Source: an uncultured archaeon | GTDB taxonomy: Archaea; Iainarchaeota; Iainarchaeia; Iainarchaeales; CSSED10-239 | Direction: 5' to 3' | NCBI GenBank assembly: GCA_964586355.1 | Contig: CAZPGO010000019.1 | Span: forward strand, 1 to 32,000 | DNA: 32,000 nucleotides | In this document: positions 12,891 to 31,932 of the stretch, one piece after another | Numbering within the stretch: position 1 is the stretch's first letter | Layout of the letters: every line of letters begins with the position of its first letter | The notes under the pieces: generated by a model | The model's database searches: none | The model's input: the letters and a program-made list of their open reading frames with translations, nothing else | Told to the model about the DNA's origin: nothing | Program-made: the position numbers and the translations under genes

Positions 12891-13770
12891 ATGCAAAATA
12901 ATTCAATAGCAATTTTTGAAAATAAAAAAATAAGAAGAATCTGGCATAATGATAAATGGTGGTTTGTTTTAGAAGATGTTGTTTTTATACTTATTGATTC
13001 TTTAGATGTTAAACAATATATAAATAAAATGAAGCAAAGAGATGAATTTCTTTCTAAGGGTACAAATTGTACACACCCTTTCTGTTAAAACAATTGGTGG
13101 ACCACAAAATATGAATTGTGCAAATACAGAAGGATTATTTAGAATTATTCAGTCCATACCTTCTCCAAAAGTAGAACCATTTAAATTATGGCTTGCAAAA
13201 GTTGGTTATCAAAGAATGCAAGAGATTGAAAATCCAGAACTTGCTCAGAAAAGAATAATTGAGATCTATAAACAAAAAGGATATTCTGATGCTTGGATAG
13301 ACAAAAGAATAAGGGGTATTGCAATTAGAGACGAATTAACTTTTGAATGGCAAAAAAGAGGAATGAAAGGAGATAAAGATTTTGTAATATTAACAGCTGA
13401 AATATCAAAAGCCACATTTGAGATGACTCCAAAAGAATACAAAAAATTTAAGGGTCTAAAAAAAGAAAATCTTAGAGATCATATGAATGATCTAGAACTA
13501 ATTTTTACACTGTTGAAAGAATCTGTTACTAAGGAATTAACAGTTAAAGAAGGTCCAGATAATTTTCCAAAAACAAAAACAATTGCAAAACGTGGTGGTG
13601 GCGTTGCTGGTATTGCCAGAAAAGTAACAGAAAAAGAGCTTAAAAGGAAAGTTTCTACTAAAGACAATTATTTAAAAATTCCAGAAAAGCAAAAAAGATT
13701 ACTAAAAAGCCCAACACCAAATAAGAAAATAAAGTATGGTATTTCTAAGAAAAAATTAAATAAAAAGTAA
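12891..13770 (+). pseudogene. Bro-N / phage-antirepressor-like (DinD-like) gene split by a frameshift
   Basis: ORF 12891-13088 encodes 'IAIFENKKIRRIWHNDKWWFVLEDVV', a Bro-N N-terminus. ORF 13042-13770, in the +1 frame, continues with 'NTEGLFRIIQSIPSPKVEPFKLWLAKVG...IRDELTFEWQKRG...KKFKGLKKENLRDHMNDLELIF...AKRGGGVAGIARK'. I recall that run as one contiguous family in bacteria, archaea and phages. The two ORFs overlap by 47 nt. Confidence 0.7.
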
Positions 13771-13953
13771 TATATATAAACTATTCTTTACAATAATATA
13801 TATTAGTATGTTGTCTATTTTTAATGGTTTTTAAGTAAATTAAAAACACTAAACAGAAACAAAAAAGTAACTAATGGGCAATAGGGCAAAAATTTATTTT
13901 TATATAAATAGAAACACAAAGGTGAAAAACAAAAAACAATTTAGGTGAAAAAA

Positions 13954-16152
13954 ATGGGAAGAAAAGAAATAGTTGCAGAACTTGCATCAAAATTAATGGC
14001 AAACACAAAAAATATTAGAAATTTAGCTATAATAGCACACATTGATCATGGTAAATCAACATTAACTGATAATTTAGTTGCTACCGCCGGATTAATCTCA
14101 AAAGAACTTGCAGGACAACAAGTTTTTATGGATTCATATGTTTTAGAACAAGAAAGAGGAATAACAATTAACTCTTCAAATGTTTCTGTTCCTTGTGATT
14201 TTTTAGGAGAAAAATATCTTATTAATATTATTGATACTCCAGGTCACGTTGACTTTGGTGGAGATGTTATAAGAGCTATGAGAGCTGTTGATGGAGCTGT
14301 TTTAGTTGTTGACTGTGTGGAAGGAGTTATGCCACAAACAGAAACTGTTTTAAGACAAGCATTAAAGGAAAGAGTAAAACCTGTTTTATTTATTAATAAA
14401 GTTGATAGACTAATAACAGAAATGAATGTTACTCCTGAGGATATGCAAAAAAGATTTGTAAAAGTAGTAATGGATATTAATAATTTAATCTCTAAAAATG
14501 CACCAGAACAATTTGTAAAAGATTGGCAAGTAAGTATTAAAGATGGATCTGTATGTTTTGGTTCTGGTTTTCATAACTGGGCATTATCTGTTCCTGCTAT
14601 GGGTAGATATGAAATTAAATTTTCAGATGTTATTGATTATTGTAAAAATGATAAACAAAAAGATCTCTCTCAAAAAATACCAATTAGTGAAGTGTTTATA
14701 GAAATGGTTTCTAAGCATTTACCAAATCCTCTAGAAGCACAAAAATACAGAGTGCCAATTATTTGGAGTGGAGATTTAGAAACACCTGAAGGAAAAGCAA
14801 TGACCGAATGTAAAGCTACTGAAGATAATGTTGCTATGATGATTACAGATGTTGTTTTAGATAAACATGCTGGAGATATTGCTTCTGGGAGAGTATATGC
14901 TGGATCTATAAAAAAAGGAATGGATCTAAAAGTACTTGGTTTAGATAAAACTGCAAAAGTTCAACAAGTAGGAATCTATTTAGGTCCTGAAAGAGTAATA
15001 TTAGATGAAGTTGTTGCAGGAAATATTGCTTGTATTGTTGGTATGAAAGAAGTATATGCTGGTCAAACACTATCAAACAAAGAAATGAATCCTTTTGAAG
15101 ACTTTATGTCTGATGTTGAACCAGTAATGACTGTGTCAATTGAAGCAAAGAATAGTAAAGATCTTCCAAAATTAATAGAAGTTGTTCACAATATTACAAA
15201 AGAAGATCCAAATATCCGAGCTGAACTAAATCAAGAAACAGGGGAGCACTTAATTTCTGGTATGGGTGAATTACATCTAGAAATAACACAATATAAAATA
15301 GAAAAAGATAATAATATCCCAATAACCGTAAGTCCACCAATTGTTGTATATTACGAAACTATTCAAAAAGCTTCTGAAGTTATTGAAGGAAAGTCCCCAA
15401 ATAAGCACAATAAGTTTAAGTTTAGAATTGAACCAATATCAGAAGAGATGTTTGCTAAAGTTAAAGCAATTAAATTTGATGGCAAAATAAGACCTAATAA
15501 AGATACAGAAATAATCAAAAAATTCCAAGAAGCTGGTTTTGGTACAGATGAAGCAAAAAATATTTGGGCTGTTCATAATAATTGTATATTGATTAATAGA
15601 ACAAAAGGTATTCAAAATCTATTTGAAACAAGAGAATTAATCATAGACGGTTTTAATGATGCTACAAAAGAAGGACCAGTAGCAAAAGAAAAAGTTTCAG
15701 GAATGATTGTTAATCTAGAAGATGCAACTCTTCACGAAGATGCAATTCATAGAGGTCCAGCACAAGTTTTACCTGCTGTAACTAGACCAATATATGCAGC
15801 TATGCTTTCAAGTGATTATACATTATTAGAACCAAAACAAAATATATCTGTTTCAGTACCACAAGATTTTATGGGTGCTGTTAATAAAGTTCTATCAGGA
15901 AGAAGAACACAAATAGAAAATATTAATATGGAAGGAGACTCTTGTGTTGTTATTGGAAAGATTCCTGTAAAGTCATTGATTGGGTTAAGTCAAGAGATGA
16001 GAGGAGAAACACAAGGAAGAGCTATTTGGACTGCAGAATATGCTGGTTACGAAAAGTTACCAAAATCTTTGCTTATGACTACAATTGCAGAGATAAGGAC
16101 TAGAAAAGGTATGGATCCTGAACCAAAGTCTGCTGAGTTTTTTATGGACTAG
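13954..16152 (+). CDS. fusA: Translation elongation factor 2 (aEF-2)
   Basis: G motifs 'AHIDHGKSTLTD', 'DTPGHVDF', 'NKVDR', and the diphthamide region 'HEDAIHRGPAQ'. I moved the start from GTG 13945 to ATG 13954 because the GTG lies inside a GGTGA SD placed 4 nt before that ATG. Confidence 0.95.
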   Translation: MGRKEIVAELASKLMANTKNIRNLAIIAHIDHGKSTLTDNLVATAGLISKELAGQQVFMDSYVLEQERGITINSSNVSVPCDFLGEKYLINIIDTPGHVDFGGDVIRAMRAVDGAVLVVDCVEGVMPQTETVLRQALKERVKPVLFINKVDRLITEMNVTPEDMQKRFVKVVMDINNLISKNAPEQFVKDWQVSIKDGSVCFGSGFHNWALSVPAMGRYEIKFSDVIDYCKNDKQKDLSQKIPISEVFIEMVSKHLPNPLEAQKYRVPIIWSGDLETPEGKAMTECKATEDNVAMMITDVVLDKHAGDIASGRVYAGSIKKGMDLKVLGLDKTAKVQQVGIYLGPERVILDEVVAGNIACIVGMKEVYAGQTLSNKEMNPFEDFMSDVEPVMTVSIEAKNSKDLPKLIEVVHNITKEDPNIRAELNQETGEHLISGMGELHLEITQYKIEKDNNIPITVSPPIVVYYETIQKASEVIEGKSPNKHNKFKFRIEPISEEMFAKVKAIKFDGKIRPNKDTEIIKKFQEAGFGTDEAKNIWAVHNNCILINRTKGIQNLFETRELIIDGFNDATKEGPVAKEKVSGMIVNLEDATLHEDAIHRGPAQVLPAVTRPIYAAMLSSDYTLLEPKQNISVSVPQDFMGAVNKVLSGRRTQIENINMEGDSCVVIGKIPVKSLIGLSQEMRGETQGRAIWTAEYAGYEKLPKSLLMTTIAEIRTRKGMDPEPKSAEFFMD

Positions 16153-16373: not shown

Positions 16374-16598
16374 ATGGTTGCAACAAAAAAGAAAGCACCT
16401 ACTAAGAAGGTTGTAAAGAAAGCACCTGCTAAGAAGGTTGTAAAAAAACCTGTAAAGAAGGTTGTAAAGAAAGCACCTGCTAAGAAGGTTGTAAAGAAAC
16501 CTGTAAAGAAGGTTGTAAAGAAAGCACCTGCTAAAAAGGTTGTAAAGAAACCTGTAAAGAAGGTTGTAAAGAAAGCACCTGCTAAAAAGAAAAAGTAG
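16374..16598 (+). CDS. Lys-rich tandem-repeat protein (74 aa; histone H1-tail-like, candidate nucleic-acid-binding protein)
   Basis: Strong GGAGG SD at 16363-16367, 6 nt before the ATG. By my count the composition is K35 V18 A10 P8 T2 M1. The protein is built from KKAPAKKVV-KKPVKKVV units. T-rich tracts follow the stop. Confidence 0.6.
   Translation: MVATKKKAPTKKVVKKAPAKKVVKKPVKKVVKKAPAKKVVKKPVKKVVKKAPAKKVVKKPVKKVVKKAPAKKKK
16416..16568 (+). repeat. Three near-identical 51-nt tandem repeats (17-aa unit KKAPAKKVVKKPVKKVV), with partial copies on both sides (16389-16589)
   Basis: Direct reading: the units differ only at synonymous AAA/AAG positions. Confidence 0.9.
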
Positions 16599-16682: not shown

Positions 16683-17795
16683 ATGTTAAAGAAAATTGTT
16701 ATTTTTGGTTCAGATACTAGTTATGGAAAAATAGCTTTTGATTTTTTTTCAAAGTTTTCTGATTCTTATAAAATTGTTGGTCTTACTTTTTCTAGTGATA
16801 GTTCTTTATTTCTTAAGCAATTAAAAGCTACAAATTCACAATTTGCTATGGTTTCAGATGAAAAGATATGTAAAGAAATTGAATTAAAATTAAACACTCC
16901 AAATTGTTTTTTTTTCTCAAAAGAGAATTCTATTAATTTTGTAAAAAATTCTGATGCAGATATTTATGTGTTTACTGAGTCAAATACTAGTACTTTAAAA
17001 AACATTTTATCTATAATATATGATCAAAAAGATGTTGTTTTAATGTCTGTTGATCTAATTTTATTTTCTGGAAAAATTCTGAAATATGAAGCAAAATTAA
17101 AAGGCATTAATCTATATTCTATTACTTTACAAAACTATTCTTTAAATCAATTTTTAAAAGTTAGAAATATTAAAGAGTTGGACAAAATCATATTACTAAC
17201 ACAAAATAACAAATATACAAAAGAGGATGTAGAAGAATTTAAAAATCAAAAAAAAGATTTCTATAGATTTAAAAAATGTTTTTATAGTTTTACAAAATTT
17301 AATTTAGTACAACAATTATATTTAATAAATTATTTATATGATATTTCTCCAGAAAAATTTGACTATTTTAATCAAAGTAAGAATATTATAAGTCTCATTA
17401 CTGAGTTTTCGGATGGTAGTAATTTAATTAATACCACAAATAACGATATTTATCCAGTTTTATATTATTATTTTTGTAAAGACAAAGAAGGCTTTAAAGA
17501 TAAAAACTCTTTAATTTCAGGAGATAAAATAAATTTGTCCTTATCAAGATTAGATCTTTTAAAAGAGCCTTTTATTAAATTAGGTGTTGATTTTTTAAAA
17601 AAAGGCGGTTCTTTTCCAATTGTTTATTTTTTAGCTTTTGAAATTTTAACTGAAAAATATTGGAATAATAAAATTAAGTATAAGGATATCTTAAAAAAGT
17701 TAGAAACCCTTTATAATGATAAAAAGTATTATGTTACAAAACCAGATCTTAAAACAATAATTGCTCTTAAAAAAAAATTAGAAAATAATCTATAA
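16683..17795 (+). CDS. DXR-like protein (homologue of 1-deoxy-D-xylulose-5-phosphate reductoisomerase) with substituted cofactor and metal-binding motifs; probable pseudoenzyme or neofunctionalised enzyme
   Basis: Collinear over its full length with E. coli Dxr as I recall it. 'KKIVIFGSDTSYGKIAFDFF...YKIVGLTF' matches 'LTILGSTGSIGCSTLDVV...FRVVALVA'. 'LYSITLQNYSLNQFL' matches 'LLPVDSEHNAIFQSL'. 'KIILLTQNNKY' matches 'SILLTGSGGPF'. 'NQSKNIISLITEFSDGSNLINTTNNDIYPV' matches '[30 protein letters not shown]'. The length is similar (370 vs ~398 aa). Confidence 0.6.
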   Translation: MLKKIVIFGSDTSYGKIAFDFFSKFSDSYKIVGLTFSSDSSLFLKQLKATNSQFAMVSDEKICKEIELKLNTPNCFFFSKENSINFVKNSDADIYVFTESNTSTLKNILSIIYDQKDVVLMSVDLILFSGKILKYEAKLKGINLYSITLQNYSLNQFLKVRNIKELDKIILLTQNNKYTKEDVEEFKNQKKDFYRFKKCFYSFTKFNLVQQLYLINYLYDISPEKFDYFNQSKNIISLITEFSDGSNLINTTNNDIYPVLYYYFCKDKEGFKDKNSLISGDKINLSLSRLDLLKEPFIKLGVDFLKKGGSFPIVYFLAFEILTEKYWNNKIKYKDILKKLETLYNDKKYYVTKPDLKTIIALKKKLENNL

Positions 17796-18620
17796 TTTTA
17801 TTTCTTTAAGATCTTCTGTTAAAACTATTTTTGAATTGCTTTTTTCTAAGGCTTGTTCTAGCATTTTTTTTGTTTTTAGAGAATTATTAATCTCTTCTAT
17901 GGCGTATTTAGGAATTACATGACCAAAACAATATTTATTTTTTAAATTTATTTGGTATTTAAAAAATTGCGTACAATAATGAGATCCACCATAACCAACG
18001 GCTTCTGTCCAATTGTTTTCTTTTTTTATTTTTTCTTTATTATAATATTTTAAGATTTCAATAATATTTTCAGCAATAAAGTTGATCCCTCTTAGATCGT
18101 TCCATTCTTCTAAACTAGATCCAATTTCTACAAAGATACTAGAGTATTCTATATAGGGTCCATGGTGTGTGGCTTCTTGTTTTGTTTTATATTTTTTAAA
18201 TTCTTTATTTTTTATATTTATTTTTAGTATTATCTCTCTTAATAAGATTGGATCAGTTTTACATAAAAAACCAGGTTTTCCACCAAAATCCGCAGAGCCC
18301 CAATTACCGATTGCATGAGCTGAAAAAGATTTTTCTTTGTTTTTTGAGGTTGTTGAATGTTTGCTTAAAAAAATTACTTGCTCTATATTTTTTTCTAGAC
18401 ATTCTATCTTTTTATTAACTTCTTCTTCTGTTAGGTATATATGTAATTTCTCAAAATAGATCAAGAATATATCATTTATTGCATAATCTCCTTTTTCTTT
18501 ATTTTCTTTAAGATAATAAACCTTTTCTTCTATCTCTTCAAAATTATATTTATTAATTAAGCAATCAAAGAAATTATTTGAAGCAACATCCTCTTTTGAG
18601 CAAATAATTACAATATTCAT
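17790..18620 (-). CDS. dtdA: D-aminoacyl-tRNA deacylase, archaeal type (DTD2/DtdA)
   Basis: 'FLSKHSTTS', 'ATHHGPY', 'FVEIGSSLEEWND' and 'GYGGSHYCTQF' fit the recalled DTD2 motifs (S(R/K)HSS, THHGP, EIGS.E.EW, GGGHY). I moved the start from TTG 18638 to ATG 18620 ('MNIVIICSKEDVAS', a typical family N-terminus). The 3' end overlaps the convergent DXR-like ORF by 6 nt. Confidence 0.8.
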   Translation of the reverse strand: MNIVIICSKEDVASNNFFDCLINKYNFEEIEEKVYYLKENKEKGDYAINDIFLIYFEKLHIYLTEEEVNKKIECLEKNIEQVIFLSKHSTTSKNKEKSFSAHAIGNWGSADFGGKPGFLCKTDPILLREIILKINIKNKEFKKYKTKQEATHHGPYIEYSSIFVEIGSSLEEWNDLRGINFIAENIIEILKYYNKEKIKKENNWTEAVGYGGSHYCTQFFKYQINLKNKYCFGHVIPKYAIEEINNSLKTKKMLEQALEKSNSKIVLTEDLKEIKL

Positions 18621-18642
18621 AATATATTTTAGGTTCAACAGA

Positions 18643-18764: not shown

Positions 18765-19118
18765 ATGATAAAGATCTTTACTAAACTTTATCCCTATAGA
18801 CTAAATATAAAATCTAAAGAACCAGTTGATTTGGAAATAAAATTAAAAAACTTAAGTGCTTCTGCTAAACAAATAAGTATAGAACTAATTCCAGATTCTG
18901 ATTTGTCATTTGAAAAAACAGGTTCTAAAAGAAATGAGTATAAAAGACTTGGAGTTATTAAGAGTAATGAATCTATAAATTTACACTATAGTGTTTACCC
19001 ATTTACAGGTATAGTTCCAGGAAAACATTTTATTAAAATAATAGTTGGTGAACATACCGCTGATTATAATGTTGTTAATGAAAGTTATGAGGCTATGGTG
19101 TTAGTAAATACAGTATAA
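18765..19118 (+). CDS. Hypothetical protein (117 aa), possibly a small beta-sandwich
   Basis: GAGGT SD lies 9 nt upstream. The gene ends 11 nt before glyA, so it is probably co-transcribed. 'VDLEIKLKNLSASAKQISIELIP' has alternating beta-strand-like patterns. No family recognised. Confidence 0.45.
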   Translation: MIKIFTKLYPYRLNIKSKEPVDLEIKLKNLSASAKQISIELIPDSDLSFEKTGSKRNEYKRLGVIKSNESINLHYSVYPFTGIVPGKHFIKIIVGEHTADYNVVNESYEAMVLVNTV

Positions 19119-21067: not shown

Positions 21068-22591
21068 ATGAATGAATTTAAAAGAAAAATAAAGTTGCTA
21101 GATCATATTGTTTTAGAAGTAATAGAAAAAGAAAAAATACCATTAGTAGTATCCAATCAAAACTTTGCAGAAGCACACTCCAGAACTGTTGCAAGACTTA
21201 GTCAGAGTGCAAAATCTTTTGAGCAAATAGTAAAAGAGATATTAACAGATGAGGGATTTGATAAAGAAAAGATTGGCAAATTCCATAAAGGAATAACTTT
21301 AGGAGTAGCACATCATTCTATAGAACAACATGGAAATGTTACTTTGTGTTTTGAAAACACAAGTATGCTTGTAACAAACAAATATTGTGAAAATAAAAGA
21401 CTTGCTGCATACCTAGAAAAGTCTACAAGATATCAGGATTTTTCTAAGCCTTGTTATATTATTCCTAAGGAGTTTGATTTGCATGAAAATAGCGATCTTA
21501 AAAAAGAGTATGTTGAAACAATGGATTTTTTGTTTAGTACCTATGCAATAATTTTGCCAAAAATAATTTCAAGAATAGAAAAGGAGTTAGAAAATAAGAA
21601 TATTACTTTAGATCCAAAAAGTATTAGAAAAAAAGCATTTGATTCTGCAAGATATATATTGCCAGCAAGTGCTTATACCAATTTTGCAATTACTACAAAT
21701 TCTCAGGTATTTAGATCTTTAATAGTAGATCTTTTATCAAATAATATTACTGAATTTAATGAGATCGGAAAAGAAATGCAACAAGAACTAATTAAAGTAT
21801 ATCCAACACTTTTGGAAATGGAGACTTGTGTTATTAATAAAGAAAGAGAGAGGTTTAAAGATTCTTCTAGCAAAATAAATCCAATATCTTTAAATCCAAA
21901 TAATAACAGTAATTTGAAGATAGATGATTTTGTTTTTGAAAATATAGAAAATACAGTAAAAATTATAGAACACACAAGACACTCAGAAAAACTTTTAGTA
22001 TATAATTATCTTTTAGATCTTGGGCATAGTGTTGATTATAGAGAAAATGAGGTCTTTTTAAATAATAATATTTTATCTAAAAAAGATTTAGAAAAATACC
22101 TAAAAGAAGCCTTTAACTTTGATTGTACCGGTTATAGACCACATAGGGCTTTAGAGCTTGCAAACTATACCTTTGAAGGTATTGTTGATTTTGGTGCTTG
22201 GAGAGATCTTCATAGAAATAGAATGCTTACTTGGATAAGTAGTTTTGTTTCTCCAGAATATGGTTTTTCAATACCGGTGTTTTTGGAGGATTGTAGAGAA
22301 GAGTATCTTTTAGGTTTAAAAAAAGCCTATGGTTTTTGGACAAAATTAATTAAAAGAGGATTTTCTAAGGAATTTTGTCAATATGTATGTCCATTAGCAA
22401 CTAATGCTAAGATTTTGTATACCATAAATGCAAGAGAACTTGATCATGTAAGTAAAACCAGAACTACAGAACACGCACATTTTTCATATAGATCTTTTGT
22501 TAATCAGTGTGTGTGTGAGGCTGAAAAAATAAACCCTGAAATTATTAAGCATATTAAAAATTATTATAAAGAACCACATTCTTTTACATAA
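21068..22591 (+). CDS. thyX: Flavin-dependent thymidylate synthase family protein (ThyX-like), long form with two tandem ThyX-like lobes
   Basis: Lobe 1: 'HHSIEQHGNVTLCF...ENKRLAAYLEKSTRY' and 'ARYILPASAYTNFAITTNSQVFRSL'. Lobe 2: 'HRALELANYTFEGIVDFGAWRDLHRNRMLTWISSFVSPEY' and 'CPLATNAKILYTINARELDHVSKTRTTEHAHFSYR'. Both are compared with the recalled ThyX motifs (H..PFEH, RHR..S....S.RY, AR..LP....T....N.R.L..F..LR....AQ.EIR). GGGAGATGG SD upstream. Confidence 0.65.
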   Translation: MNEFKRKIKLLDHIVLEVIEKEKIPLVVSNQNFAEAHSRTVARLSQSAKSFEQIVKEILTDEGFDKEKIGKFHKGITLGVAHHSIEQHGNVTLCFENTSMLVTNKYCENKRLAAYLEKSTRYQDFSKPCYIIPKEFDLHENSDLKKEYVETMDFLFSTYAIILPKIISRIEKELENKNITLDPKSIRKKAFDSARYILPASAYTNFAITTNSQVFRSLIVDLLSNNITEFNEIGKEMQQELIKVYPTLLEMETCVINKERERFKDSSSKINPISLNPNNNSNLKIDDFVFENIENTVKIIEHTRHSEKLLVYNYLLDLGHSVDYRENEVFLNNNILSKKDLEKYLKEAFNFDCTGYRPHRALELANYTFEGIVDFGAWRDLHRNRMLTWISSFVSPEYGFSIPVFLEDCREEYLLGLKKAYGFWTKLIKRGFSKEFCQYVCPLATNAKILYTINARELDHVSKTRTTEHAHFSYRSFVNQCVCEAEKINPEIIKHIKNYYKEPHSFT

Positions 22592-24450: not shown

Positions 24451-24954
24451 GTGATTAAAAGAGCAGTTTCTCCAATAATTAGTGTGATTTTACTTATTTT
24501 GGTTGCTGTTATTTTAATAACAATGTTTTTGTTATGGGCAAAGGTAGAAATAAAAGAAGATCTTCAAAGCTCTAGTGATGCTTTAAGTCCTGCTAGTGAT
24601 ATTGATTGTCTAAATTATAGCTTATCAGTAGACTCTTGTTTGATTTACTCTTCTTCAAAAAAAGTTGAGGTTCTTTTAACAAATGCAACATCAATAAGAT
24701 ATTTTGATATCATGTTAACAATAGAAGCAGAGAACCTATCAGAAGCAAAAGAAAAATGGGTTGGTGTTTTTTCAAATGCATTATTTCCAGGACATAGCAA
24801 ATTATATAATACTGATACAAATTTCTTATTTACAAAAAAAGAGAATTTTACAAATCTAAATTTTAATGAGATCTCTAATATTATTTTAACTAATGGGGCT
24901 TGTAAAAGAGAGATCATTAATCTAATTAATATGTGTGAGATTATTAATGAATAA
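24451..24954 (+). CDS. Archaeal type IV pilin-like protein (class III signal peptide, Pilin_N/DUF1628 type), paralogue 1
   Basis: The N-terminus 'MIKRAVSPIISVILLILVAVILITMF' fits the recalled (K/R)(G/A)(V/L)SPVI..VL(L/M)(I/V)AITV motif. GTG start with GTGAT 6 nt upstream. Confidence 0.7.
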   Translation: MIKRAVSPIISVILLILVAVILITMFLLWAKVEIKEDLQSSSDALSPASDIDCLNYSLSVDSCLIYSSSKKVEVLLTNATSIRYFDIMLTIEAENLSEAKEKWVGVFSNALFPGHSKLYNTDTNFLFTKKENFTNLNFNEISNIILTNGACKREIINLINMCEIINE

Positions 24955-25444
24955 AAAAGCTTTATCACCAATAATAAGTGTTATTTTAATAATTTTAGTT
25001 GCTGTTATATTAATTACTATGTTTTTAACATGGTCAAAGGAATATTATAATAATCAGTTAACCAACACTACTGAGCAGCTAAAACGAGCATCAAGTATTG
25101 AGTGTGCTAATTCTAAATTAAAAGTTTCTTCTTGTTCTTTTGATTCTTTTACTAAGGAGCTTTCTTTATTTTTAATAAATGATTCACAAATAAGATATTT
25201 TGATTTTACTTTAACTATAGAAGGAGTTGATCAAACATCTCAAGAACCAGTTAGACTTTATGGTGTTTTTAATCATATATTGGAGCCAGGAGCTTCTATC
25301 AATCTTTTAACAGATAGCAACTTTTTGGTTTTAGATTCTTCTGGTAATTATGAAAATTTAGATCTAAATAGTGTTTCTCTAATTAACCTAAGTAACGGTG
25401 CTTGCAAAAACCAGAACTTTGTTTTAGTGTGTTCTGTTGACTAA
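24947..25444 (+). CDS. Archaeal type IV pilin-like protein, paralogue 2
   Basis: 'MNKKALSPIISVILIILVAVILITMF'. I moved the start from 24935 to ATG 24947, which overlaps the upstream stop (ATGAATAA) and gives a typical short, charged signal peptide. It shares 'IRYFD', 'LTIE', 'GVF...PG.S' and 'NGACK' blocks with paralogue 1. Confidence 0.7.
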   Translation: MNKKALSPIISVILIILVAVILITMFLTWSKEYYNNQLTNTTEQLKRASSIECANSKLKVSSCSFDSFTKELSLFLINDSQIRYFDFTLTIEGVDQTSQEPVRLYGVFNHILEPGASINLLTDSNFLVLDSSGNYENLDLNSVSLINLSNGACKNQNFVLVCSVD

Positions 25445-26389: not shown

Positions 26390-26655
26390 TTTTTGTTCGT
26401 GCTCCTACAAATATATTTATTTTTAGTTGTTTTTATATATGTTTGTTTTTTATTTTAGAGTTGTTTTTGCACAATATCTTGGACAAGCCAACTTTTTTTA
26501 AAACAAAAAATAGGCATTTAAAAATAGATCCCCGTTTTTAACAAAAATTACTGATCTAAAAGATCTTACAATATATTTATATTTGTTTTTTAGAATAAGT
26601 AGTATAATAATGTTAAAAAATTAACTATGCTTATTTATCTTTGGAGATCTTATTT

Positions 26656-29600
26656 ATGAAAAAATTATTTTTGTTGTTTTTTTTAATACTTAACCTATCT
26701 ATGGTATTTAGTCTGACTCCTAATTTCTTTAATAAAGTTAACTATTATGATCAAATTATTGATGTTGGTGTTTTAGATAATAACCTTTCAGGAGATTTCT
26801 TAAAAATAACACTCTCAGATCAATATGAAACTTATTTTGAAGAGGCTTTTTCTATTAAAAATAGTAAAAAAATAGATGTTGTTTTTGATAGCTCTGTTTC
26901 TTCTTATCTTGTTGCAAACTATGAGGTTTTGGATTCTAATTATTCTATATTAGAGACCTATTCTTTTCCTTTATTTTTAGAGAGTATAGATCTTGGCAGA
27001 ATTTTTTTGTGTGATATAAAAGAATGCCATTATTCTGATTCCAAAAAATATTTTGATAATAGTTCTAAAATCTACCTTAATGTTGATAATAATTTAGATG
27101 TTAATTATTCTCTTGATCTTTTTTTAAAAGAAGGAAAAAATTATAAACTTTTATTTTCTGAAAGCACACATGTATTTCCTTATTTCTTAGCTATTGATGA
27201 TTCTGGTTCTTATAAGCTGGTTTTAAGTTATTATTTTGAAGATCTAATTTTTACTAAAAAAACTTTTTTTGAGATTGGGTCTCTAGAGCCAATTTCTTCT
27301 GATAGTTTTTCTGAGAGTAATATTGTATATTCTGATTTTGTGGATAGTAATTTAACAGAACCTGTTATAAATAAAAATACTTCTAATGATTCAAATACAT
27401 TATCAGAGAAAAATTATTTTTTTCAAAATTCAAAAAATATTTTAGCTTTGCTCTTTATATCTATTATTTTAATTTTGATTTTAATAATTTTATTTACAAG
27501 TAAAAATAAAAGATCAAGACATAGAAAAATAGCTTCTTTTTTTGTAGTTTTTTTTATTTTTTTTAATCTAGGATCTGTTTTTGCAGAATCTGAAAACGTT
27601 GTGACTTTGGAAGGTAGTACAAAACTTAATGAGATATTTACTTATTATAGAACCCTAAATGCAGCATCTAAAGACATAGTTTTTTCTTTTGAAATTAATG
27701 AAAGTCTAGAAGCTAATGACACTTTACTAGATAATTACCAGATTATACCTTCTGATGTAGACGACATTTTTAGAGAACCGATATTAGATTTAGAATATTC
27801 TAATAGATTTTTAGATTTTGCTGAAATTTATTCTTTGGAAAACAGATTAGAAACTGTTTATTTTTTTAATATTAATAAAAGTAATTCTACAGAGTATATA
27901 AATAATTCTTGTTTTGAAAATATTAGTAATTATTATAAAAGCATAGATTTTTTTGGTCAAACAAATATAATAAACGAACAAGAAACTATAAGACAGCTTT
28001 TTTTGCCAAGAACTAAACCATATATTGAATCAGAGCTAGAAAAGTTTGGAGATTCTGATTTTATTAATGATTGTTTTAATTTTTTATTAACTGAAAAAAT
28101 ACTTGTTCCCTATGATATTTTATTATATACAAAAGTGGAGCTAAAAAACATACCAAAAAATTTTGAGCTTTATATGTCTATTGAAACAATTAATTTTGAA
28201 CCTCCTTTTTTAACAACAAAAAAACCATTGGATATATTAGTTTCTTTTAAAAGAACCCCAATAGTTATAGAATCTAGTTATTCTATGCCCTATAACTGCG
28301 ATAAAGAAAATCTTAGTTATTGTTATATTAATAATTCTGACTTTGATTCAATTAAATATCTATCAGATACTGGTAGTATAGCAAGTCCAGAGTTTTATAA
28401 AAGAATGGATGATTATGCAAGTTATCTTAATAATTTTGATTTAGTAAAAGATCTATATAGAAAAGAGGTTGATGGAGTTAACATTAAAGATCTGCTCTCC
28501 TTTGCAGCAATTAATAGAGAAAATCTTTGTTTTTCTAATGAAAAAAGAGAATATAATGAATTAATTTTTGATGTAGCAAAGGCCTACAATTTTACAGACG
28601 AGCAAGCTTTACAGTTTTGGGCTTTGATTGCTGAGAGATCTAACTGTGATATTAATTATGATGATGTTGATAATGATTTGCTTGGTCTTGCACAAATAGA
28701 TTTAGAGGCATATTATAATCAGTATATTGATCTACATGCTTCTATGCATCCATTTTTAAAAGAAGAAGAGTATCTTCAGTATTTAGTTTTAGGAGACTTT
28801 AAAGAAATAAATGAAAAAAATATAGCAAAATTTGATGCTGATAAAGTTATTAGATTTGGTGGGCTTTCTAGTAAAATAAGTAATATGTACTGGTATTATG
28901 AATTTCTTATAAAAGCAATAAAAAATAGTAAAGATAAATACGGGTCTTTAGTTTTGTTTGCAGGAACAGATTATTTAAAAGAAATGACTACTCTTGTTAA
29001 TTTTTGTGAGAAGTATTATACAGATAACTATCTTGAAAATATCTATTATGATTATGAATCTTTTGTGACAGATAATTTAAAAAAAAACTTAAGAAGCATT
29101 TTTGTTCTAAGTAGTTTACTGGATAAAAAAGAGTTCTCTTTTACTGAAGAGATATGTAAGTATACTGGGGAGCCTGAGTCTATAGTTATGGAATATCCAA
29201 TAATATATACAAATCTAACTGGCAATTATTGTATAGATAATGGATTTGTGCCATCTGTTAATTATCCTAGATACAAAAAAATAGACGGTGTTACTTATCA
29301 TGGAACTGGTGCTTTACTATATAAATGTGAGGATAATAAGATATATAGCTGTATTCCAGGAACAGAGATCATACAAGAAGTAAGTGGATCTGCAGTAAAT
29401 ATACTTAAAGAAGAGCTTTGTTCTAGAGAGCTAATTCTAAAAGAAAAAAGAGTTAAGATTTCTAAAGAGTTTAAGGTTTTAATAAATTATCTTGCAATAA
29501 AGCACAAATATTTGACTAATAGAGAATATTTTGTTTCTAATGGTTTTTTAGAAGACTCTTCTAATGACTCAAAGAAATTTCTTGAAAATAAAACAAATTA

Positions 29601-30456
29601 TTTTAAATTGAAATATGATTATTTTGATATTAAAAAAGAGAATTTTTTAGAGATCACTGCTGAAAAAAATATTTCTTTGTTAAAAAGAATTGATCCAAAT
29701 TATTATTTTGCAGAGATTTTACAAAATAGAAGAAGTTTAGCCTATGCAAGGTCTGGTAACTGTGCTCAGTTTGTTAGAGAAATTGGAACAAATCTTTTTA
29801 CTTCAGAGCTTTATCCAAGAGCAGGAGTTTCTGCTGCTTGGTTATATGATACTACTCCAACAGTAAAAGAGAGATATAATTTAATTTGGGAATCTCCAAT
29901 TGTTTGTTATAGTAAACCAGGAAACAGAAAATTACCAAGAAGTCGTTGTGTTGAGACCCCAGAAGTACAAAGTCCTACTTTAGATTTAGATCTGTTGCCT
30001 GATGGTGCGATCTTAGGTCTTTATGTTTGTAAACAAAGTCATGGGTCTTTAAGAAATCTAGAGTATACACATGTTGGGACCTATATTGGCAAAGATCAAC
30101 TAGGTCATCATTTGTTTATACATATGGGTAATTCTAGATCTATAGAGATAATAAGTGAATATACCTCTCACATATGTAGTTCTGGGTATAATAGGCAAAT
30201 AATGAGAGTCTATGTCCCAAAATCCACAGGAATAACTAGTATGGATCAATTAAGGGAATTAAAAGAAAAAGATTTATTACAACCAGTTACCTGGATTAAA
30301 GATATTAACGAAGTTATAAATAGATCAAATGGACTAGAATATCCTGAATTTGGTATTCAAGATGAAGAAGAAATGGATTCTTCTGAATATGAATCAGATG
30401 ATTCAGAAAGCGAAGATGCAGATCTTGAAGAAAATGCAGAGCAAGAATCTGAATAA
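26656..30456 (+). CDS. Giant surface protein (~1266 aa): signal peptide, ectodomain 1, internal TM hairpin, ectodomain 2 with an SLT-like lytic-transglycosylase motif set and a C-terminal NlpC/P60-like Cys-His peptidase motif set, then an acidic tail
   Basis: The start is set at ATG 26656 (GGAGAT SD 8 nt upstream; 'MKKLFLLFFLILNLSMVFS' is a signal peptide) rather than TTG 26641. SLT-like: 'LIAERSNCD...DLLGLAQID...ISNMYWYYEFLIKAIK...GSLVLFAGTDYL' against the recalled ES...GLMQ...YL...AYNAG. NlpC/P60-like: 'SGNCAQFVREIG' (Cys) ... 'LPDGAILGLYV' ... 'YTHVGTYIGKDQLGHHLFIHMGNS' against the recalled DCSGFV ... GDLVFF ... HVGIYIG.....IHA. Confidence 0.7.
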   Translation: MKKLFLLFFLILNLSMVFSLTPNFFNKVNYYDQIIDVGVLDNNLSGDFLKITLSDQYETYFEEAFSIKNSKKIDVVFDSSVSSYLVANYEVLDSNYSILETYSFPLFLESIDLGRIFLCDIKECHYSDSKKYFDNSSKIYLNVDNNLDVNYSLDLFLKEGKNYKLLFSESTHVFPYFLAIDDSGSYKLVLSYYFEDLIFTKKTFFEIGSLEPISSDSFSESNIVYSDFVDSNLTEPVINKNTSNDSNTLSEKNYFFQNSKNILALLFISIILILILIILFTSKNKRSRHRKIASFFVVFFIFFNLGSVFAESENVVTLEGSTKLNEIFTYYRTLNAASKDIVFSFEINESLEANDTLLDNYQIIPSDVDDIFREPILDLEYSNRFLDFAEIYSLENRLETVYFFNINKSNSTEYINNSCFENISNYYKSIDFFGQTNIINEQETIRQLFLPRTKPYIESELEKFGDSDFINDCFNFLLTEKILVPYDILLYTKVELKNIPKNFELYMSIETINFEPPFLTTKKPLDILVSFKRTPIVIESSYSMPYNCDKENLSYCYINNSDFDSIKYLSDTGSIASPEFYKRMDDYASYLNNFDLVKDLYRKEVDGVNIKDLLSFAAINRENLCFSNEKREYNELIFDVAKAYNFTDEQALQFWALIAERSNCDINYDDVDNDLLGLAQIDLEAYYNQYIDLHASMHPFLKEEEYLQYLVLGDFKEINEKNIAKFDADKVIRFGGLSSKISNMYWYYEFLIKAIKNSKDKYGSLVLFAGTDYLKEMTTLVNFCEKYYTDNYLENIYYDYESFVTDNLKKNLRSIFVLSSLLDKKEFSFTEEICKYTGEPESIVMEYPIIYTNLTGNYCIDNGFVPSVNYPRYKKIDGVTYHGTGALLYKCEDNKIYSCIPGTEIIQEVSGSAVNILKEELCSRELILKEKRVKISKEFKVLINYLAIKHKYLTNREYFVSNGFLEDSSNDSKKFLENKTNYFKLKYDYFDIKKENFLEITAEKNISLLKRIDPNYYFAEILQNRRSLAYARSGNCAQFVREIGTNLFTSELYPRAGVSAAWLYDTTPTVKERYNLIWESPIVCYSKPGNRKLPRSRCVETPEVQSPTLDLDLLPDGAILGLYVCKQSHGSLRNLEYTHVGTYIGKDQLGHHLFIHMGNSRSIEIISEYTSHICSSGYNRQIMRVYVPKSTGITSMDQLRELKEKDLLQPVTWIKDINEVINRSNGLEYPEFGIQDEEEMDSSEYESDDSESEDADLEENAEQESE

Positions 30457-30471: not shown

Positions 30472-31932
30472 TTAATTTTTTTCCACATTAAAAGCATTTT
30501 CTATTTCTTTTGGTTTTTTTGAGAAAAAGTCTATTGCTTCTTTTAGTTCTATATGCTCTTTTGCATATTCCTCAATTGAGATGCCCTTTTTATAAGCCTC
30601 ACATGCCAAAACTAAAGCCCTTGACCCTGACCGTGTTCCTTTTGGATGAGCATGACACCCTGCACCCATAGTGGTTATAAAATCTATTGACCCCATAACA
30701 TCTATAAACGGTTTTAGTAATGTAGGGTTAAGACCACCAGACACTATTGGTGCACACTTTTTTACTCCTCTCCAAGAGTCGTCTTTTAGGATAATGTGGC
30801 CAATTCTGTCTTCTTGAACCATTTTTAAAGCATCTTTGTCATCTTCAGGTATTTTTGACCAAGATTGATCAAAGAAATGTCCTGTTGCTGAAAAATCTAA
30901 AATACCGTCTGCTGCGGTTATATCTTCTTTAGGTGTTCCTTCCATTTTACCAACACCAGCAGTTCCTGTATGTATTCCGGATGCTCCCGCTAATCTTGCA
31001 AATTTAGATAAAACTAGAACAGAGAAACCAAATGCATTTTCTGGTCTTGTAAATGCTCCATGTGCTGCTCTATGGAAGTGTATAAATACATTTGGATATT
31101 TTCTTCTTAAGGTTTGAACAGCCATCCACCCAGCAGTAATTCCATCAATTAAGAACGCATAAGATCCCTCTTCAAAGCCAGCATTTCTGATCATCTCACA
31201 TCTATTGATCATGGTCTCAAAATCAGAAGCAGAAACATTAAATGAATGAACTTTTTTTTGTCCTGTTTCTTTTACTGCTTTATCCATAGCTTCTTTTACA
31301 TGTTTAACCATCTTTTCATAAGGGCAAAAATCTTGATCTGCTTGTGGCTCATCATTCTTAACGAAATCGCCTCCACCAACCCAAAAATCATAGCACACTT
31401 CTGCATATTCTGCACTTGTTAGTCCCATTTTTGGTTTTACTATTGTTCCTAATATTGGTCTATCATAAACTTGTAAATAATTTCTCATATCGTCAAGAGT
31501 GTAACTAGGTCCATCAAATTGTTCTAACATTGCTGGAGAGAACCAAACATCTAATAGTTTTAGAGCTGATACTTCTTTCATGCCTAGCACATTTCCAACA
31601 ACATAGGTTAAAATGTTTTGAACATTTCCAATCCTGTCAAACAATCTCCATGGAAAAGCTATCCAGACAAGATTTTTTTCTTGATCTAGTTTGTATACTA
31701 AAGCATTCATTTCTCTGGAAAATGCTGTTTCAGTATTTACCTTAAAATTAGTTCCTGTTGATGATTCTGCTGCAACCTCTGCTGCTGCTTGTAAGATGTT
31801 TAATGATCCTCCTGGAACTAAATGGAATATTCCTAACATATATTCTCCATTTTTTTCATTTGGGATCTCAAAATTTACATAAGCTTTTTGTTTATCATTT
31901 AGTGTTTCGTATAATTCTTTTTCTGTTAACAT
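30472..31932 (-). CDS. rbcL: Ribulose-1,5-bisphosphate carboxylase/oxygenase large subunit, form II/III-like
   Basis: 'GTIVKPKMGLT', 'GGGDFVKNDEPQADQDFCP' (the KNDEPQ signature of the form II and II/III lineages), 'HFHRAAHGAFT', 'GIHTGTAGVGKMEG', 'SGGLNP', 'GAGCHAHPKG'. GGAGG SD lies 6 nt upstream on the minus strand. Confidence 0.9.
   Translation of the reverse strand: MLTEKELYETLNDKQKAYVNFEIPNEKNGEYMLGIFHLVPGGSLNILQAAAEVAAESSTGTNFKVNTETAFSREMNALVYKLDQEKNLVWIAFPWRLFDRIGNVQNILTYVVGNVLGMKEVSALKLLDVWFSPAMLEQFDGPSYTLDDMRNYLQVYDRPILGTIVKPKMGLTSAEYAEVCYDFWVGGGDFVKNDEPQADQDFCPYEKMVKHVKEAMDKAVKETGQKKVHSFNVSASDFETMINRCEMIRNAGFEEGSYAFLIDGITAGWMAVQTLRRKYPNVFIHFHRAAHGAFTRPENAFGFSVLVLSKFARLAGASGIHTGTAGVGKMEGTPKEDITAADGILDFSATGHFFDQSWSKIPEDDKDALKMVQEDRIGHIILKDDSWRGVKKCAPIVSGGLNPTLLKPFIDVMGSIDFITTMGAGCHAHPKGTRSGSRALVLACEAYKKGISIEEYAKEHIELKEAIDFFSKKPKEIENAFNVEKN

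Follow-up and report, generated by a model that had tools for sequence, protein, structure and literature searches.

Archaeal host markers, namely split rpoB and rpoA, rpoH, aEF2 and DTD2, are present in the 32-kb stretch of DNA that was analysed here (the window). It also carries, at positions 16683..17795 of the forward strand, an ATG-start ORF encoding a catalytically degenerate homologue, 370 aa long, of the reductoisomerase for 1-deoxy-D-xylulose 5-phosphate (DXR/IspC), identified as such on the basis of homology, fold, family and selection; the frame is intact over 370 codons, as the earlier note had reported. Upstream and on the same strand lie the genes for archaeal elongation factor 2 (13945..16152, recognised by EF-2 domains in orthologous loci) and for a 74-aa Lys-rich protein consisting of tandem repeats (16374..16598; KKAPAKKVVKKPV repeats, pI 11.5), which can be likened to a histone tail. 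On the other side, the gene for the archaeal D-aminoacyl-tRNA deacylase DTD2 (17790..18638, reverse strand; PF04414 at 3.9e-48) is convergent to the DXR-like gene, overlapping it by 6 nt with its 3' end, and beyond it a conserved protein of 117 aa, with no family assigned, is encoded on the forward strand (18765..19118) and found in most loci.

The genes for aEF2, the small Lys-rich repeat protein, the DXR-like protein and convergent DTD2 constitute a conserved block found in all of the independent loci (at least eight), and the flanks outside this block vary between loci. A counterpart of the Lys-rich gene is located 80–130 nt upstream of the DXR-like gene at every locus that reaches far enough, with the exception of L005, where a search of the 468 nt upstream revealed no ORF of at least 30 codons. 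The convergent arrangement of DTD2 is also seen in L005, L007, L009, L010, L012, and L045–L049. Between the Lys-rich gene and the DXR-like ORF there are T-runs and a TATA-like box, which are weak evidence at a GC content of 25%.

The predicted protein aligns with DXR over its whole length, in agreement with the earlier note, and NCBIfam, phmmer, hhalign, and Foldseek all point the same way. The NCBIfam model NF009114 matched with an E-value of 9e-30, residues 1–362 being aligned to positions 1–370 of the 389 in the model, while the Pfam domains PF02670 and PF13288 were detected at 4e-10 and 3.4e-6, respectively, and a phmmer comparison with PDB entry 6mh4 gave 7e-12. Alignment of the profile of the DXR-like family described below with the DXR profile by hhalign had a probability of 99.93% and an E-value of 8.8e-36 over 367 columns. 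The AlphaFold model of the protein (pLDDT 90.1) was matched by Foldseek to the DXR crystal structure 6mh4_A with a TM-score of 0.86 and an E-value of 1e-22, and the best 50 matches listed were all DXR (50/50). The ORF is an end-to-end DXR/IspC homologue, far above chance; both chance similarity and a different fold were rejected, since the profile, phmmer, hhalign, and Foldseek matches are all to DXR and the model falls in the DXR fold. The scores nevertheless fell far short of the equivalog cut-offs, with 103.8 versus 461 bits for NF009114 and 73.4 versus 315.7 bits for TIGR00243. No match to PF08436 (DXP_redisom_C, the central catalytic domain) was obtained for the ORF even at E ≤ 10, and in precomputed Pfam assignments this domain is missing from all members of the family and found in all true DXRs. 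Annotation is split: JGI pipelines label family members as DXR, while NCBI labels them as 'hypothetical protein'.

The N-terminal Rossmann-like domain (residues 1 to ~146, 16683..17120) comprises the PF02670 match at residues 5–120, shows strand–helix alternation in the model, and is the best conserved part of the family, with the lowest column entropy (1.60). The C-terminal helical, PF13288-like domain (17568..17795; PF13288 over residues 284–365, helices at 296–369 in the model) retains the GGSxP motif and has a family-specific PDLKTI motif. The three-domain fold, consisting of a Rossmann-like N-terminal domain, a central alpha/beta domain, and a C-terminal helical bundle, is common to this protein and DXR/IspC (DXR-I; EC 1.1.1.267; PF02670, PF08436, and PF13288), as are the similar length, the homology from end to end and the structural motifs G8, G14, G132, D264-G-S, and GGxxP.

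Functional sites are numbered here as in E. coli DXR, and the substitutions were concordant in four independent alignments, phmmer, MAFFT, and hhalign among them. A set of 133 true DXRs has 43 columns with a conservation of 90% or more, and the ORF keeps only 10 of these. In the dinucleotide-binding loop (16707..16727; this and the following segments are on the forward strand), the canonical GSTGSIG is degenerated to GSDTSYG, with T10 replaced by Asp and G11 by Thr; position 11, which is Gly in 99% of true DXRs, is T, N, S, or R and never G in 25 family members. In the former metal-binding loop (17118..17150), SITLQNYSLNQ stands for PVDSEHNAIFQ in the same register by phmmer, MAFFT, and hhalign, so that D150/S151/E152/H153 correspond to T148/L149/Q150/N151. 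The earlier note had read both of these loops correctly, including D150T, E152Q, and H153N. The metal triad D150/E152/E231, each ligand of which is 99% conserved in true DXRs, has become T148/Q150/Q211, and K125/E126 are replaced by V/D. The sequence LLTQNNKY for LLTGSGGPF (17193..17216) lacks the phosphate-binding S186 (replaced by Q) and the GG turn. The region of the flap and the third metal ligand (17250..17315) is shortened to 22 residues versus 30 in DXR, the HPNWxMG segment being 8 residues shorter and H209, P210, W212, and M214 absent; the flap H/P/W columns are gaps in 13 aligned family members, and the segment measures 22–29 residues across all 25. Of the substrate binders S186, S222, N227, and K228 and the pair K125/E126, only S222 and N227 are kept; K228 is replaced by L208, and the metal ligand E231 by Q211. 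Within FNQSKNIIS...DGSN (17367..17423), H251 and H257 are replaced by Q231 and S237, while the DGS beta-hairpin motif is kept, D264/G265/S266 being invariant in alignment A1. For three further motifs, the register given in the earlier note was off by one: NKGLE aligns with NLVQQ rather than FNLVQ, where the change of E231 to Q stands, N227 is retained and K228 corresponds to L, not N; HPQS aligns with QSKN rather than NQSK; and TGSGGPF aligns with LTQNNKY rather than TQNNKY.

These losses extend to the relatives of the protein. None of the 25 family members in the site table has G11, D150, K125, K228, H209, or H257; position 150 is occupied by Ser or Thr in every case, and in most members S222 is kept and N227 is replaced by Arg. 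Unlike DXR/IspC, the protein is thus without the NADPH-loop Gly, the metal triad, Lys125/Glu126, Ser186, Lys228, His209/Trp212/Met214, and His257. Judging from these residues, NADPH binding has probably been lost, and we infer that the protein would be unable to reduce or isomerise DXP.

The DXR-like family comprises about 20 clusters, and its members occur only on contigs of Iainarchaeota (DPANN). The orthologues span identities between 84% and 28%, and full length and motifs are conserved across them; similar substitutions and conserved synteny in related Iainarchaeota genomes bear out the expectation of the earlier note. Members, at 379 bits or above, are separated by a clear gap in score from true DXRs, at 122 bits or below, and the family was monophyletic in 100/100 neighbour-joining bootstraps. 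An apparent second paralogue in one MAG (L044) proved to be a contig-end fragment of the gene at L011, downstream of EF2. The dN/dS ratios were 0.14–0.22 at a dS of 0.6–1.0, similar to the value of 0.13 for the neighbouring DTD2; pairs at or above 68% identity gave 0.12–0.23, and higher ratios appeared only in saturated comparisons with L005 (34% identical). The DXR-like gene is therefore under purifying selection. The view put forward earlier that the gene is not simply decaying is upheld by dN/dS values of 0.14–0.22 and by the orthologues in syntenic loci.

The sequence diversity of the family inside one phylum equals that of DXRs across bacteria. By both profile score and corrected distance, the closest intact DXRs are those of DPANN archaea, which reach up to 149 bits against the family profile, compared with 51 bits for E. 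coli DXR. Placement of the family as sister to DPANN DXRs was recovered in only 24/100 bootstraps, the best of any placement, and so lacks statistical support; its position among true DXRs is likely to be affected by artefacts of long branches and of composition. Patterns derived from a five-sequence alignment were confined to the N-terminal part, so bacterial matches there are not a phylogenetic signal. A horizontal origin of the gene is plausible.

The earlier note started from the outdated premise that DXR would not be expected in archaea; intact DXRs of the bacterial type occur in Woesearchaeota, Nanoarchaeota, and Aenigmatarchaeota and have been attributed to transfer from bacteria (PMC8421398, PMC6107057). 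These DPANN DXRs resemble the family in belonging to archaeal, low-GC hosts but, unlike the dead family, they retain every catalytic residue, and in Woesearchaeota DXR is a part of the MEP pathway. The Aenigmatarchaeota DXRs P0019 and P0191 have only the changes H153P, W212F, and M276T, with H209R in addition in P0019. Iainarchaeota/Diapherotrites are reported to carry genes of the mevalonate (MVA) pathway (PMC10936187, PMC6107057), and the reported use of mevalonate by the phylum (PMC10936187), along with the basic rather than acidic character of the family, sets it apart from DXR/IspC. No MEP-pathway families, including dxs and ispD-H, were found among any ORF of the 32-kb window, as had been noted before, and neither MEP nor MVA genes were found in about 15 kb of extensions beyond both window ends.

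Another group to be considered is DXR-II/DRL of Brucella and others, whose members are active and fosmidomycin-sensitive and whose similarity to DXR-I is confined to the NADPH domain (PMC13001223, PMC3847144). The window's protein shares with them the 'DXR-like' name and an NAD(P)-type N-terminal domain; unlike them, it is homologous to DXR-I in all three domains, PF13288 included, and lacks the motifs for NADPH and metal. On these grounds it is no DRL, and membership in this group was rejected. There is a parallel with pseudoenzymes in general, which also keep the fold, lose catalytic residues, remain under purifying selection and are retained in particular lineages, with the difference that no active paralogue or pathway partner to be regulated is evident here. 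No report of a dead or pseudo-DXR family was found in the literature searched.

The family also has a changed pattern of conservation and composition. In true DXRs, the active-site columns are far more conserved than the others (entropy 0.50 versus 2.24, p = 7e-13), while in the family the corresponding values are 1.69 and 1.82 (p = 0.31), that is, the old pocket is relaxed and conservation no longer favours the columns of the former active site. The median pI of the family is 8.9 versus 6.4–6.9 for true DXRs, and the net charge is +8; for DPANN true DXRs these values are 6.85 and -0.5 (p = 1e-4). It is the central and C-terminal domains that have become more positive, and aromatic residues make up twice the fraction. 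Residues conserved specifically in the family include, as numbered in the window's protein, Y152, S153, Q231, Y263, K140, and K116-D117. Highly conserved new residues in or near the old cleft are, in E. coli numbering, S/T at 150, Y at 154, S at 155, Q at 251, and N-Y-Y at 281–283.

Taken together, these data make it probable that the ORF encodes a selected pseudoenzyme built on the DXR scaffold and having a new, probably non-redox role. Essential catalytic residues are missing, and the gene is under purifying selection and retained in one lineage; the proposal of the earlier note that a DXR scaffold without NADPH motif or metal ligands persists as a pseudoenzyme or in a repurposed form is thus supported by the fold and the lost catalytic inventory. 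One could hypothesise that the ancestor of Iainarchaeota had a bacterial-type DXR, probably of the lineage that other DPANN archaea still keep intact, and that this enzyme became redundant because the mevalonate route supplies the phylum with isoprenoid precursors, and was then recruited for another role. The new role would most likely be binding via the stable scaffold rather than redox catalysis, and the strongly conserved N-terminal domain and the cleft, whose lining now consists of Ser/Thr, Tyr, Gln, and Asn, could provide the binding surfaces. Such a binding or scaffold role is one that we infer from what is absent from the sequence, and the basic, aromatic-rich shift suggests an anionic partner, for example, a nucleic acid, a phospholipid, or an acidic protein.

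The new conserved cleft residues could equally form a new catalytic or ligand site, and the protein may then be a neofunctionalised enzyme catalysing another reaction, without metal or NADPH, by means of polar and aromatic residues. We consider this possible but rather unlikely. Ser/Thr148, Tyr152, Ser153, Gln231, and Asn/Tyr261–Tyr263, as numbered in the window's protein, are 83–100% conserved in the family and unlike the DXR consensus; the invariable Ser/Thr at position 150, the mostly kept S222 and the frequent Arg in place of N227 would also fit, as would purifying selection on the gene. However, the former active-site columns, taken as a set, are conserved no better than the remaining protein, part of the flap closing the DXR site is missing, and no acid/base or nucleophile pair is invariant in the family. 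In addition, the window's subclade departs from the family consensus at several of the new cleft sites and differs from the main subclade in the residues at 151, 152, 227, and 231, which argues against one common catalytic constellation.

In another reading, the protein is a nucleic-acid or translation factor, a basic binder of RNA, tRNA, or DNA working with aEF2, DTD2, and the Lys-rich protein; this seems to us improbable. The raised pI, the added positive charge of the central and C-terminal domains and the doubled aromatic fraction speak for it, together with Lys-rich C-terminal tails in some members (P0007, P0014, and P0017) and the constant neighbourhood with translation genes. On the other hand, DTD2 is convergent and therefore not co-transcribed with the DXR-like gene, the T-runs and the TATA-like box set the Lys-rich gene apart from the ORF, and the gene order beside the rpo/S12/S7/EF2 cluster is possibly a matter of mere inheritance. 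Moreover, two family members are near-neutral (pI 6.9 and 7.5), and Pfam and NCBIfam searches of the ORF revealed no known RNA-binding motif. A conversion of the DXR scaffold, in the ancestor of Iainarchaeota, into a basic, aromatic-rich binder of nucleic acid or tRNA that would act with these neighbours as a previously unrecognised translation- or chromatin-associated DPANN factor is improbable to the same degree.

A decaying relic, that is, a functionless pseudogene-like ORF that happens to remain undisrupted, is very improbable and was rejected. The catalytic residues are lost and the family evolves fast, its diversity within one phylum matching that of DXRs across bacteria, and DPANN genomes evolve fast. 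But about 20 clusters, with identities as low as 28%, have intact ORFs of full length, pairs of at least 68% identity show a low dN/dS (0.12–0.23), conservation extends to length and motifs, AlphaFold modelled the protein with confidence, and useless genes are purged from reduced DPANN genomes. Least probable of all, and rejected, is a working, highly divergent DXR serving an MEP-type route in the host archaeon, for which the JGI pipeline label, the end-to-end homology with the DXR fold and the true DXRs of other DPANN archaea (PMC8421398) might be cited, but every family member has lost, by replacement or deletion, the three metal ligands, the NADPH-loop glycine, K125/E126, S186, K228, H209/W212, and H257, the scores lie four-fold under the equivalog cut-offs with 'hypothetical protein' as the NCBI label, MEP genes were not found nearby (the window and about 15 kb beyond), and MVA genes are reported for the phylum (PMC10936187).

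A DXR label of the JGI type could cause metabolic reconstructions to credit Iainarchaeota with an MEP step that they almost certainly lack. MEP genes of DPANN archaea serve as evidence in the 'lipid divide' debate, on which such a mislabel bears. The death and reuse of an enzyme can be seen in the family as in a dated natural experiment: sister DPANN lineages keep an intact DXR, and throughout one phylum selection maintains a dead copy. The fact that such a copy is selected in streamlined genomes implies that its new role is a useful one. Dozens of crystal structures exist for DXR, which is a drug target, and a stable DXR fold without the NADPH, metal, and substrate sites indicates what share of the sequence serves the scaffold alone, while the DXR-like family may reveal a new ligand or partner.

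The DXR-like open reading frame (ORF) at positions 16683–17795 of the forward strand (ATG start, 370 codons) matched the Pfam models of the N-terminal (PF02670, 4e-10) and C-terminal (PF13288, 3.4e-6) domains, while the central catalytic-domain model PF08436 gave no match even at E ≤ 10. Residues 1–362 aligned with positions 1–370 of 389 in the NCBIfam DXR equivalog model NF009114 (E 9e-30), with scores below the equivalog cut-offs (104 bits versus 461, and 73 bits versus 316). Among solved DXR structures, phmmer found 6mh4 at 7e-12. The profile of the family, a group of homologues from Iainarchaeota contigs including the window protein, aligned by hhalign with a profile of 16 true DXRs at 99.93% probability (E 8.8e-36, 367 aligned columns, 15% identity). 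An AlphaFold2 model based on 13 family members (pLDDT 90.1, pTM 0.89) was matched by Foldseek to 6mh4_A with a TM-score of 0.86 (E 1e-22), and all 50 top matches listed were DXRs. Altogether, these data agree with the end-to-end homology claimed in the earlier note; the similarity is real, and the predicted fold is that of DXR.

The register of substitutions was defined by the agreement of four alignment methods (phmmer, MAFFT, L-INS-i with 137 true DXRs, and hhalign). In E. coli numbering, the NADPH loop GSTGSIG (8–14) is replaced by GSDTSYG, K125/E126 by V/D, D150/S151/E152/H153 by T148/L149/Q150/N151, S186 by Q, K228 by L208, E231 by Q211, H251 by Q231, H257 by S237, and M276 by I, and the H209-P-x-W212-x-M214 flap is missing from a segment that comprises 22 residues versus 30. 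The substitutions listed in the earlier note thus stand in substance, but three of its motif registers were shifted by one: the true partner of NKGLE is NLVQQ, with N227 retained and K228 replaced by L, that of HPQS is QSKN, and that of TGSGGPF is LTQNNKY. Only 10 of the 43 columns conserved in at least 90% of 133 true DXRs are retained (G8, G14, G132, Q158, K217, S222, T224, N227, D264, and I356), and none of them is a metal ligand, redox-chemistry residue or cofactor contact; S222 and N227 are phosphate contacts.

Among 5.8 billion proteins searched by a word index, orthologues with 84, 81, 68, and 34% identity to the window protein were found. When 1.84 billion cluster representatives were searched exhaustively with a profile, about ten more full-length family representatives appeared (217–302 bits), and below them true DXRs formed an unbroken series from about 124 bits downward. 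In a second profile search, 19 clusters scored at least 379 bits, followed by a gap down to 122 bits. All 100 neighbour-joining bootstraps recovered the family as monophyletic; its stem is long, and the window subclade is sister to the remaining members in 86 of the 100. The earlier note had proposed a check for orthologues with the same substitutions in related DPANN genomes, and G11, D150, K125, K228, H209, and H257 are missing from all 25 members examined. These proteins are labelled 'hypothetical protein [archaeon]' by NCBI versus DXR by JGI; P0007, P0014, and P0017, three retrieved members, carry Lys-rich C-terminal extensions of 15–30 residues not found in the window protein. The family-bearing genomes of the GTDB collection ('Candidatus ainarchaeum sp.', 'Candidatus Iainarchaeum archaeon', and other archaeal MAGs) are members of the Iainarchaeota, a phylum once called Diapherotrites. 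The window itself, with rpoH, split rpoB and rpoA, L30e, S12, S7, aEF2, DTD2, SHMT, a double ThyX, and RuBisCO at a GC content of 24–33%, comes from a DPANN-type archaeon.

Conservation in true DXRs peaks sharply at the active-site columns (mean entropy 0.50 versus 2.24, p = 7e-13), while in the family these columns are no better conserved than the rest (1.69 versus 1.82, p = 0.31), and the best-conserved domain is the N-terminal, not the central one. The family is basic (median pI 8.9, net charge +8), in contrast to DPANN true DXRs (pI 6.85, net charge -0.5, p = 1e-4; median pI over all true DXRs, 6.4), with the charge rising from -3 to +2 in the central domain and from 0 to +5 in the C-terminal domain. 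This shift is not simply AT bias, since Lys content is alike in both groups. The aromatic fraction is doubled, to 14% versus 7% overall and 19% versus 9% in the central domain. A surface so basic and rich in aromatic residues points to an anionic partner, and we propose, with moderate confidence, that the protein now serves in binding or scaffolding, without redox chemistry. Alternatively, the relined cleft could support a new enzymatic activity: in or near it, a few positions are strongly conserved with new residues, namely Ser/Thr 150, Tyr 154, Ser 155, Gln 251, and Asn-Tyr-Tyr 281–283. At 151, 152, 227, and 231, the window and main subclades carry different residues. We consider such an activity rather unlikely.

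A nucleic-acid or translation-linked role, hinted at by the charge and the gene neighbourhood, seems improbable. The gene order aEF2, small Lys-rich repeat protein, DXR-like gene, and convergent DTD2 is the same at all loci with sufficient flanks (the window, L005–L007, L009, L010, L012, and L045–L049). Co-transcription of the DXR-like ORF with its neighbours is not indicated, since DTD2 is convergent, its 3' end abutting or overlapping that of the ORF by 0–20 nt, and the Lys-rich gene is separated from the ORF by T-runs and a TATA-like TTTATAAAAAAA. The arrangement might have been inherited along with the conserved rpo-S12-S7-EF2 cluster next to it, instead of being kept by shared function. 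The Lys-rich protein (16374–16598, forward strand; 74 aa, pI 11.5) consists almost wholly of KKAPAKKVVKKPV-type repeats (51-nt period, 3.6 copies, 98% identical) and resembles histone-H1-tail-like nucleoid proteins. Counterparts of 34–102 aa with differing repeat numbers lie 80–130 nt upstream of the DXR-like gene at related loci, missing only at L005 among those reaching far enough. A conserved 117-aa protein (18765–19118, forward strand), without Pfam or NCBIfam matches, usually follows DTD2; it is clearly alignable in L010, L012, L045, and L048, and absent at L046/L047. Outside the block, gene content varies among loci.

Several other genes of the window, all but one on the forward strand, deserve mention. 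The aEF2 gene was mechanically called from GTG 13945, but orthologues begin at ATG 13954 (MGRKEIV...), probably the true start. Between S7 and aEF2, an interval of variable content among related loci, lies a BRO-N domain protein (13042–13770); this domain is typical of viruses and mobile elements. The 507-aa ThyX (21068–22591), in a nucleotide-metabolism cluster with SHMT, contains two Thy1 stretches and represents a duplicated or fused thymidylate synthase, called as 122 and 358 aa in L048 and as a single 507-aa gene in L049. Two adjoining small ORFs (24451–25444) carry archaellin/type IV pilin N-terminal signal motifs, one with a weak UpsA-pilin match. A 1271-aa ORF (26641–30456) lacks Pfam/NCBIfam matches and has a 1266-aa counterpart in sister contigs, and a RuBisCO large-subunit homologue (PF00016 and PF02788) occupies 30472–31932 of the reverse strand.

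Between the window gene and orthologues 68–84% identical to it, dN/dS (Nei-Gojobori) was 0.14–0.22 at dS 0.6–1.0, with 0.13 for the neighbouring DTD2 and 0.03–0.06 for aEF2. Together with the full-length ORFs in all clusters and their preserved length and motifs, this excludes a decaying relic, as the earlier note had argued from the intact frame, and makes a relic without function highly improbable. A working, divergent DXR is scarcely conceivable: judged from its residues, the protein would, with high confidence, be unable to bind NADPH and metal canonically or turn DXP into MEP. The window protein thus has a DXR fold from which the set of catalytic residues is missing; it is conserved throughout its lineage and evolves under purifying selection, and its earlier reading as a pseudoenzyme or repurposed scaffold was essentially right.

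That archaea lack DXR can no longer be assumed: Woesearchaeota possess the MEP pathway with a Firmicutes-related dxr (PMC8421398), and MEP enzymes in a few DPANN archaea have been attributed to transfer (PMC6107057), while mevalonate genes have been reported in Iainarchaeota/Diapherotrites (PMC10936187, PMC6107057). No matches to MEP or mevalonate families were found among the window ORFs, confirming that the window holds no other MEP-pathway gene, or among the ORFs of about 15 kb of sequence past its ends. DPANN-type DXRs score highest against the family profile (up to 149 bits versus 51 for E. coli) and are also nearest by corrected distance, similarities that common low-GC composition may inflate. 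In one neighbour-joining tree the sister of the family is P0019, a divergent DXR with catalytic residues; closest to P0019 itself are an Aenigmatarchaeota DXR (57%) and, at 43–45%, many DXRs of Woesearchaeota and Nanoarchaeota, with Clostridia coming next; the position of the family among true DXRs is not supported (bootstrap at most 24/100). The most economical history would be a bacterial-type DXR in a DPANN ancestor of Iainarchaeota, made redundant by a mevalonate route alongside; catalysis would have been lost and the gene retained for another role already acquired. An Aenigmatarchaeota MAG (GCA_046760145.1; L050, 10001–11164) encodes a DXR whose metal triad and NADPH loop are intact but which carries H153P, W212F, and M276T. 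Its gene directly adjoins those of CDP-archaeol synthase (CarS-like) and a CDP-alcohol phosphatidyltransferase, and no other MEP genes lie up to 10 kb away; this DXR, set among archaeal lipid-synthesis genes, may be an orphan or have diverged in part.

By structure and ancestry, the window protein belongs to the DXR-I superfamily, and it lacks every functional hallmark of DXR/IspC that could be tested. Its identity as DXR-II/DRL was rejected, since DRLs are active enzymes that resemble DXR-I solely in the NADPH domain (PMC13001223, PMC3847144). The protein agrees with what is generally understood as a pseudoenzyme, and no description of a dead DXR family was found in the literature searched, the coverage of which was incomplete. 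We regard it as a new, presumably non-catalytic variant within the DXR family, restricted to a single DPANN phylum. Pseudoenzymes and bacterial-derived DPANN genes are unsurprising in themselves; the finding corrects a repeated mis-annotation relevant to debates on archaeal isoprenoid pathways and provides a clean example of enzyme-to-pseudoenzyme conversion under selection.
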